Of a stretch of DNA of 64,000 bases, positions 61,460-62,699 are shown piece by piece; position 1 is the stretch's first letter; each line of letters opens with the position of its first letter. Under the pieces are notes generated by a model. The model worked only from the letters and a program-made list of their open reading frames with translations. It was not told where the DNA came from and searched no databases. The translations under genes and the position numbers were made by a program. The stretch comes from Escherichia phage ime09, in sequence record NC_019503.1. The stretch is one strand, 5' to 3'.

Positions 61460-61933
61460 TTATTTGAATGATTTGACGTACTGAACAGAACCTTTGCTAT
61501 TCACGAAAGCGATTTTACCATTTTTGTTATACATGGTAGCAGTACGCTGATAGCCATAAGTTTGCTTACCAGATTGATAACCAACTAATGCGAAATTATC
61601 TTCGCCCATTTTATTCTGCTTAGCGCGAATGCGTTCATGGCCGTGTGCCATAAGAACCTTAGCATCACCAGTTGAAATTGATCTACGAGTTTTTTCATCT
61701 TCAACTGTATTAACAAAGTCGTCAAATGAATCAAATTTAGCATGGGATTTATTATACAGTTTTCCATCTACTGCATAATTATATCCCTGTACATCCATCT
61801 CAACTTCTGTACCATCATCCAATACAGCAGTGATTTTTTGACCTTTTTTAAATTTCAAAAGATCAGTAAAAGATTCAGCAATAATTTGAGAATTAATAGC
61901 TGCTTCAGTGATAAATTCTTGATATGTTTTCAT
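61460..61933 (-). CDS. internal protein (head-packaged) with capsid targeting sequence
   Basis: 157 aa starting MKTYQEFITEA, the T4 IP/Alt CTS consensus. Confidence 0.65.
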   Translation of the reverse strand: MKTYQEFITEAAINSQIIAESFTDLLKFKKGQKITAVLDDGTEVEMDVQGYNYAVDGKLYNKSHAKFDSFDDFVNTVEDEKTRRSISTGDAKVLMAHGHERIRAKQNKMGEDNFALVGYQSGKQTYGYQRTATMYNKNGKIAFVNSKGSVQYVKSFK

Positions 61934-61942
61934 ATGTTTCCT

Positions 61943-62359
61943 TTAAATGTAAATATTTTTGCCGTAATACTTGTACCAGTGTGGCTTCATTAAAATTTTT
62001 TCATCGAGTCGTTGTTGACTCAATTTAATAGCTGATTTGCATGGATTATAATCATTTTTCCATTCTGCTGGAATATCGCTGATGTCAGGAACTTCAGTAT
62101 CTTTTATACTAAACTCACGTTTTAAGCATTCCGTTATAATGTCTGATTGACGCTTTCGCAAAAATTCTAACTTATCGTAAAAGAACGTAACATGACCAGA
62201 GCCTAAAATAAACTCGGAAGATATTTTAAAATCTTTAACCCGCTTACCATTTGCCACATGTTTACGAACTATACCAAAAACACGCGGCAATTCACGATAC
62301 TCAGCCATAAGATGTTGGTCGGTCAGTTCAGAAACAAGTGTTAAATTGATGCGAGTCAT
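61943..62359 (-). CDS. denV: endonuclease V (pyrimidine dimer glycosylase) DenV
   Basis: track ORF 61943..62371; [12 protein letters not shown]... matches T4 DenV. Confidence 0.9.
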
Positions 62360-62386
62360 AATTTCCTCCAAGTAGTTGATGAATGT

Positions 62387-62416
62387 ATAGTATCAAAGTC
62401 CTTGGAGGAAGTAAAC
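62387..62416 (-). promoter_or_regulatory. early promoter GTTTAC-N18-TACTAT
   Basis: upstream of denV. Confidence 0.5.
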
Positions 62417-62417
62417 A

Positions 62418-62699
62418 CTATTTTTCTGAAGCGCCTGAAATATATTTTTCAAGACGTTGTTTCATTAGCGAGCCGTTCTTAGCAATTTCTTCTGGTTTAT
62501 CGCACATACGCAACAAGGCTTCAAGCTTAACGATATCACTGGTACGTTCAAATTTGCGAGTATCTATCTTACTAGCAAGTTCAGAAATACGTGCTAATAG
62601 ACTTTCAGCTTCAACCAAAGCTGCACCTAGCTTAGTTGCAAATGTATCAGTAGCTTCGTTAAGAATAGATTCTGATAAAAATTCACTATATGTTTTCAT
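62418..62699 (-). CDS. internal protein with capsid targeting sequence (IPII-like size)
   Basis: track ORF 62418..62714; [10 protein letters not shown] start overlaps e stop (ATGA). Confidence 0.55.

Follow-up and report, generated by a model that had tools for sequence, protein, structure and literature searches.

Two predicted internal-protein genes flank denV in Escherichia phage ime09: ip4 and a diverged ip5-like gene

Introduction

What is encoded on either side of denV in Escherichia phage ime09, and do the products belong to the internal proteins (IPs) that T4-like phages pack in the head? The question arose from an original prediction, made from the letters of a 64,000-nucleotide (nt) stretch of record NC_019503.1 (the window), which pointed to two open reading frames (ORFs) of 157 and 93 amino acids (aa), each beginning with a capsid targeting sequence (CTS) and standing on opposite sides of denV. 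In T4, the CTS takes the internal proteins to the scaffolding core, and the protease gp21 cuts off the propeptide. Approximately 360 copies of each internal protein are kept in the T4 head and are injected with the DNA (PMC3012670, PMC9026906). Ip1, Ip2 and Ip3 are inhibitors of GmrSD enzymes, each acting on a different one and without cross-protection (PMC12373910, PMC9391042), and the CTS protein Bas37_0260 inhibits McrBC according to a preprint (bioRxiv 10.1101/2025.11.20.689424). IP genes are known at two hypervariable loci, e–vs.8 and 57B–tRNA (PMC12373910, PMC2839356). Two highly variable IP loci with more than 30 IP variants were described by Repoila et al. (1994), as reported in PMC2839356, so that the hypervariability has been on record since 1994. 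The view of IP loci as hypervariable anti-restriction cassettes, on which the original prediction drew, agrees with this literature (PMC3012670, PMC12373910, PMC2839356).

Identification of the two proteins

According to the family searches, the 157-aa protein is Ip4, which has already been named and catalogued. It matched the Pfam family DUF7412 (PF24183) with 317.3 bits (cutoff 27; E 2.6e-95; residues 1–157 on profile positions 1–158) and phrog_3155 (internal virion protein) with E 1.9e-101. The protein was 100% identical to one of vB_Eco_Geo and is annotated as ipIV in Kha5h, Ip4 in JK1 and ip4 in T2, where the product has the same 157-aa length. In the BFVD structure search, K3 Ip4 (Q38388, Enterobacteria phage K3) was the sole match, with 97% identity and a TM-score of 0.87. 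Ip4 was located by tblastn in 469 phage records, among which 305, from Escherichia, Shigella and Citrobacter phages, reached an identity of at least 95%, whereas 160, from Klebsiella, Salmonella and Serratia phages, had 60–80%. The family was narrow, with 14 clusters in a database of 5.8 billion proteins. Moreover, an exhaustive search of 1.84 billion representatives with an Ip4-profile hidden Markov model gave eight matches, none of which was annotated or connected with any known family of enzymes or inhibitors; three of the eight were diverged Ip4 relatives with the variant leader MNFxxFLNES. The family alignment, which reached down to 61% identity, had 64 invariant columns. An enzymatic role based on the invariant His, Asp and Glu residues was considered and dropped, as it had no fold or motif support and H97 was not conserved. 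No published function for Ip4 was found in the literature.

The 93-aa protein is assigned by its sequence to the Ip5 family, as a member of a diverged paralogous subgroup. Residues 1–87 matched phrog_3499 (internal head protein) with E 1.2e-46, and BLASTP over 84 residues gave 48% identity to T2 Ip5 (E 5e-23) and to Bas37_0261 (E 1e-24). Copies at an identity of at least 80% were present in about 237 phage records and always overlapped the end of e; the e-adjacent copy in VR20 is already labelled "ip5". The location of Ip5 beside 57B in T2, wV7 and Bas37 was not shared by the gene of the window. Hence, the position of the latter at the 3' end of e, in the other IP locus, points to a relocated diverged subgroup and not to an ortholog of T2 Ip5. 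The product is therefore called the Ip5-like protein here. The gene for the T2-type Ip5 of Bas37, bas37_0261, lies at 12864–13121 of the MZ501089 extract. Relatives' records also contained mislabelled genes, with Ip5 entered as "MazF family toxin-antitoxin system protein" and lysozyme e as "baseplate hub + tail lysozyme"; annotation noise of this kind was seen in the records of Killian, PYPS2T, UFV13 and Kha5h.

Structure prediction, which had been named as a check in the original prediction, was run on both proteins with AlphaFold2 (AF2), and neither predicted structure matched anything informative. The Ip4 model (predicted local distance difference test, pLDDT, 76.8; predicted template modelling score, pTM, 0.71) had an alpha/beta core beyond residue 20. 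The Ip5-like model was all-helical and of low confidence (pLDDT 72.7, pTM 0.35), and Foldseek with this model returned no match better than E 7. A sequence search of solved structures gave nothing credible for the two proteins, and the NCBIfam scan of both gave sub-threshold noise only.

The bodies of the two proteins differed from each other and from T4 IPII and IPIII, as had been predicted. BLASTP similarity to IPII and IPIII was confined to the first 11–13 residues or so, and body homology was rejected. The only longer alignment, of Ip4 with IPII (31% over 77 residues), was anchored on the CTS and otherwise weak. Homology to the McrBC inhibitor Bas37_0260 was likewise rejected by sequence comparison for both proteins. 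High identity to IPII or IPIII in the arrangement of T4 was thus not found. The suggestion that the two proteins are distinct effector variants holds in that they are distinct from IPII and IPIII; as members of families already named and widespread (Ip4 and the Ip5 family), they are not new. Public records already contain both genes, with their family names and in this order; the observation is correct but ordinary.

Targeting sequences and predicted processing

Both ORFs carried the CTS at the predicted positions. The CTS of Ip4 (MKTYQEFITE) was identical to that of T4 IPIII (MKTYQEFIAE) at nine of ten positions, and that of the Ip5-like protein at seven of ten. Residues Y4, F7, I/L8 and E10 were kept in both; by experiment, positions 4 and 7 determine targeting and positions 8 and 10 determine processing (PMC9026906). 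Translation of the window in six frames gave three occurrences of the pattern MKTY.EF, against none in 300 composition-preserving shuffles, indicating that the CTS motif was not a chance match. By the cleavage-site scan, the Ip5-like protein has candidate sites for gp21 behind E10 (LSE) and E15 (LNE); in Ip4, the candidates were after E10 (ITE) and E20 (IAE). In the Ip4 family alignment, E10 and E20 were invariant and each followed a hydrophobic-x pair. Hence, two gp21 sites are probably present in Ip4, whose residues 1–20 were disordered in the AF2 model. The computed mature Ip4 had a mass of 15.5–16.5 kDa and an isoelectric point (pI) of 9.1–9.3, and the computed mature Ip5-like protein had a mass of about 9 kDa and a pI of 6.3–8.1.

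A third CTS-like start (MKTYKEFIKE...) was observed elsewhere in the window, in a 54-aa ORF with an acidic/lysine-rich tail that lies directly upstream of the homolog of primase gene 61, where T4 has gene 61.1. The ORF was conserved across T4-like phages, with about 1,395 records that extended to Acinetobacter and Aeromonas phages, and matched no Pfam family; in some relatives, this 61.1-like ORF carries the label "major capsid protein". Its residues 2–38 aligned with residues 57–93 of T4 gp23 (43% identity, E 4e-9), a stretch around the gp23 maturation cleavage site. The product could act as a decoy for the gp21 protease or regulate it, or it could be left over from a duplication.

Gene order and cassette slots around denV

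The 3' end of the window was a Tequatrovirus (T4-like) segment that shared 98% identity across 3 kb with vB_Eco_Geo, slur07, Kelasse and Kha5h. The features of the segment are listed in Table 1. The minus-strand order was nudE, e, the 93-aa ORF, denV, the 157-aa ORF and the vs.8 homolog, so both IP genes lay within the e–vs.8 interval. The order in T4 is nudE–e–ipIII–ipII–denV–vs.8. As T4 keeps ipIII and ipII on the e side, ip4 of the window stood on the opposite side of denV, next to vs.8; this part of the original prediction was borne out. For the ip5-like gene, the ORF listing gave an alternative upstream TTG start at 62714, and the ATG start is used in the annotation of relatives. In Kha5h, the closest annotated relative, an ipI-type gene is also present at the 57B locus, which falls outside the window.

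Table 1. Coordinates of the features discussed in the window
Feature	Coordinates	Strand	Remarks
nudE	63221-63676	-	upstream, same side as e
Late-promoter box TATAAATA	63211-63218	-	just upstream of e
Late-promoter box TATAAATA	63198-63205	-	just upstream of e
e (T4-type lysozyme), 162 aa	62696..63184	-	ends ...GTWKAYI (stop); Pfam Phage_lysozyme
ip5-like internal protein gene, 93 aa	62418..62699	-	phrog_3499
Early-promoter/stem-loop element	62363..62416	-	between ip5-like gene and denV; sequence, RNA fold
GTTTAC of early-type promoter	62411-62416		
Stem, 10 bp	62401-62410 / 62363-62372		
-10 box TACTAT	62387-62392		
denV (endonuclease V, pyrimidine-dimer glycosylase), 138 aa	61943..62359	-	non-T4 allele, ends ...YYGKNIYI (stop); Pfam Pyr_excise
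Slot 2 insertion, 498 nt	61445..61942	-	ip4 + 15 nt
ip4 (IpIV) internal protein gene, 157 aa	61460..61933	-	begins MKTYQEFITEAAINS; Pfam DUF7412, phrog_3155
Late-promoter box with one mismatch	61776-61783		inside ip4
vs.8 homolog, 195 aa	60767..61354	-	conserved right-hand boundary of IP locus; phrog_1488 E 1.8e-78
54-aa ORF with CTS-like start	18092-18256	-	MKTYKEFIKE...

The comparison of gene orders (Table 2) indicates that the e-to-vs.8 interval acts as a two-slot cassette site flanking denV. In addition to that of the window, seven arrangements of the interval were seen, in T4, T2, HY01, PinkRuby, Bas45, Bas37 and FRZ284. The denV–ip4 junction (181 nt) was present in 163 records and the e–ip5-like–denV unit in 237; the exact combination of the window was found, among the matches listed, in some 20 records from approximately 16 different phages. 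By these counts, it is common, not exceptional, for an IP gene to lie downstream of denV.

Table 2. Internal-protein genes in the e–vs.8 interval of the window and of relatives
Phage	e to denV	denV	denV to vs.8
Window	ip5-like	present	ip4
T4	ipIII, ipII	present	empty
T2	ip4 (e side)	absent	no separate second slot
HY01	empty	present	ip4
PinkRuby	empty	present	105-aa CTS gene, ip4
Bas45	ip5-like	present	86-aa CTS gene, 104-aa CTS gene, ipIII
Bas37	empty	present	empty
Klebsiella Jiaodavirus FRZ284	ip4-like, ipIII-like, ip7-like	absent	no separate second slot

Homologs of the gene at the vs.8 end of the interval carry the name vs.8 in annotated relatives, and they are variously labelled there as RegB-domain protein, terminase or hypothetical. 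The homolog in the window had a Walker-A-like motif (GGRQSGKST) and weak matches to P-loop families of the AAA and terminase-N kinds (Pfam E 0.008–0.04; phrog_2 terminase E 6e-6), and it may be a small P-loop NTPase.

Junctions of the cassettes

As judged from their junctions, the cassettes have conserved recombination patches at their borders, namely the leader plus CTS codons and the early-promoter/stem-loop element. When 11 IP genes whose bodies are unrelated were compared, codons 1–10 of the CTS were 82% identical at the DNA level, the 25-nt leader 49% and the next 120 nt 29–34%. The leader of ip4 was of the T4-ipIII type in T2 and of the T4-ipII type in the window. It has been proposed that T4 early-promoter elements with AT-rich stem-loops may confine shuffling to the IP loci (as described in PMC2839356). 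The contrast between CTS and body identity, along with the promoter/stem-loop element, fits this published cassette-shuffling model.

In slot 2, the insertion relative to T4 and Bas37 comprised ip4 and 15 nt; its limits were the denV stop and the conserved sequence upstream of vs.8, GGGAACAA(C/G)CTGGACCTCATGATTCT. The latter comes after ip4 in the window, T2 and HY01, after ipIII in Bas45 and after denV in T4. In T4, GGGAACAAC... directly follows the denV stop, and in Bas37 the one-base variant GGGAATAAC... follows it after 7 nt. Furthermore, the leader of T4 ipII (NC_000866 extract 3220–3250) contained an 18-nt sequence, AAAAATATTTACATTTAA, that was the same as the last codons and stop of denV in the window (61943–61960). 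This match suggests that the 18 nt are a relic and that an arrangement with an IP gene directly after denV contributed to the T4 locus, the ipII cassette of T4 having at one time been placed just behind a denV of this non-T4 allele.

The ip5-like cassette had no leader, and its ATG overlapped the TGA stop of e (ATGA). A 162-aa e was found in phages with the ip5-like cassette (the window and Bas45); e has 164 aa and ends in ...GTWDAYKNL (stop) in T4, T2, HY01 and Bas37. Fusion of the cassette to e through ATGA has thus rewritten the C-terminus of the lysozyme from ...DAYKNL to ...KAYI, two residues shorter. The denV gene of the window had a nucleotide identity of 94% to that of HY01, 70.7% to that of T4 and about 71% to that of Bas45, and e was about 91% identical to that of T4. 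By these identities, two distinctly different alleles of denV are found in closely related phages.

Predicted expression

Two perfect T4 late-promoter boxes, TATAAATA, which are consensus matches only, were located just upstream of e. They are likely the source of late transcripts through e and the ip5-like gene, and these transcripts possibly continue through denV and ip4. No terminator-like site was found on the minus strand between e and vs.8. An early-type promoter lay between the ip5-like gene and denV, in which GTTTAC was followed 17–18 nt later by the −10 box TACTAT. A 10-bp stem (free energy −17.8 kcal/mol, z −3.08) enclosed the −10 box and covered the Shine-Dalgarno sequence of denV; the equivalent element in T4 lies between ipII and denV. 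An AGGAAA Shine-Dalgarno sequence preceded ip4, which started 9 nt past the denV stop. A late promoter of its own was not found for ip4, the nearest one-mismatch box being inside the gene. With no intervening terminator-like site, ip4 would be read from the early promoter of denV and by read-through.

Proposed role and alternative explanations

Both proteins are very probably packaged internal proteins. The explanation that best covers the results as a whole is that they are T4-type internal proteins that are injected and may inhibit Type IV restriction, and we regard it as moderately probable. Both would be small dispensable cargo, packed in the head and injected into the host alongside the DNA. 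By reference to T4 biology, the CTS would dock Ip4 and the Ip5-like protein on the prohead scaffolding core, and gp21 would cut after Glu10 and probably also after Glu20 (Ip4) and Glu15 (Ip5-like). Processing is expected to yield Ip4*, basic and of about 15.5–16.5 kDa, and Ip5-like*, close to neutral and of about 9 kDa; each head would probably hold hundreds of copies. In the cytoplasm, each would most likely, by analogy only, bind and block one specific modification-dependent (Type IV) nuclease, of the GmrSD or McrBC type, that would otherwise cut glucosyl-hydroxymethylcytosine DNA. The pair would take the place held by IPIII and IPII in T4. That at least one of the two is in fact a Type IV restriction inhibitor is a tentative proposal, put at slightly below an even chance. 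A hint comes from a HIDEN-SEQ supplementary table (bioRxiv 10.1101/2025.11.20.689424), in which bas37_0261 insertions were depleted about 4-fold in CFT073 versus K-12 (log2FC −2.09, adjusted p 0).

Several points weigh against this account. The depletion of bas37_0261 is only a hint and could be a polar or neighbourhood effect, as the neighbouring 57B had a similar trend in the same table (log2FC −1.56, K-12 versus CFT073; bioRxiv 10.1101/2025.11.20.689424); moreover, the bas37_0261 product is just 48% identical to the Ip5-like protein of the window. The mature Ip5-like protein is not basic, unlike the T4 internal proteins. By the promoter matches, ip4 is without its own late promoter and downstream of the early-type denV promoter, the timing being inferred. 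Furthermore, the nucleotide identity of ip4 between the window and T2 (95.8%) exceeded that of the flanking e (90.7%), and Ip4 is, on the conservation seen in the searches, unusually conserved for an arms-race effector. No experiments on Ip4 or this Ip5-like protein (virion proteomics, knockout or target) were found. Neither body had homology to Ip1, Ip2, Ip3 or Bas37_0260; hence, the anti-Type IV role is argued by analogy alone. However, the four known inhibitors are mutually unrelated, so the lack of homology carries little weight.

The basic pI of mature Ip4 and its strong conservation across phages of several host genera, with variant-leader relatives in more distant phages, would also suit a protein that serves the virion, in core assembly or in neutralizing and organizing DNA, and not host defence. 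Such a role, for Ip4 especially or for both proteins, has parallels in T4, where IPIII mutants assemble heads more slowly and form more polyheads (PMC9026906) and the lysines of internal proteins touch DNA phosphates (PMC3012670). However, many Tequatrovirus phages (T4, Bas37 and Bas45 among them) are without Ip4, which therefore cannot be a required structural part; IPIII itself is also a GmrSD inhibitor that is active in the cytoplasm without its CTS (PMC12373910, PMC9391042), and the Ip5-like protein is not basic. A virion role is accordingly considered unlikely. The breadth of Ip4, its variant-leader relatives and a predicted fold without a solved match can also be taken to mean that Ip4 may not be a strain-specific GmrSD inhibitor. 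Ip4 might then act on a host component that is conserved, or on a kind of defence with which no injected protein has been connected so far. The Ip5-like protein, whose gene is fused to that of the lysozyme and whose T2-type relative gave the fitness signal on CFT073, is possibly a second such case; this idea is offered as a doubtful one. More generally, the two proteins could be injected effectors against another target, either another immediate-early defence or a host process, such as a different nuclease, an abortive-infection sensor or transcription take-over. This is also rather improbable, given that the four small internal proteins of the CTS type whose targets are known are all inhibitors of Type IV restriction enzymes.

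The loss of leader and promoter by the ip5-like gene, with its fusion to the e stop, and the lack of an own late promoter for ip4 might further be read as signs that the CTS is a relic and that one of the ORFs is unpackaged, being an ordinary cytoplasmic accessory protein or non-functional. We consider this highly improbable. Both ORFs were intact and near-identical in hundreds of genomes, the key CTS residues and the Glu cleavage sites were conserved, also across the diverged Ip4 family, and late expression of the ip5-like gene would be supplied by its coupling to e.

The two proteins are of some value as a lead. Every small internal protein with a known target (n = 4) is a specific Type IV restriction inhibitor, and Ip4 and the Ip5 family are widespread internal proteins. 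The four precedents make them obvious and cheap candidates for the next inhibitor–enzyme pairs, and they are relevant to the range of hosts open to T4-like phages in therapy. Moreover, the exact cassette boundaries obtained from the junction analysis are usable for swapping internal proteins between phages.

Comparison with known internal proteins

T4 IPI* (a GmrS/GmrD inhibitor) and Bas37_0260 (an McrBC inhibitor) are small CTS-bearing injected proteins of Tequatrovirus and set the functional precedent for the pair of the window, in which one internal protein counters one Type IV enzyme; they differ in being encoded at the 57B–tRNA locus and in having unrelated bodies. T4 IPII and IPIII, which are GmrSD inhibitors (ECOR21/ECOR17), share with the pair the e–vs.8 locus, the CTS and the presumed route through prohead, gp21 and injection, and the leader of T4 ipII is that of ip4 in the window. 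The protein bodies and the position relative to denV are different. The Ip5 proteins of T2, wV7 and PP01 and Bas37_0261 have in common with the Ip5-like protein a helical body, the C-terminal motif EIAKNGS-MK-RLE and the phrog_3499 assignment. However, T2-type Ip5 is encoded beside 57B, has 84–85 aa and carries Lys10, whereas the Ip5-like protein is fused to e, has 93 aa and carries Glu10. The closest likeness is that of Ip4 in T2 and K3, which is the same protein, with the same right-hand neighbour (the vs.8-upstream sequence) in T2. The two differ in their left-hand context only. In T2, ip4 directly follows e behind an ipIII-type leader and denV is absent, whereas in the window it follows denV behind an ipII-type leader.

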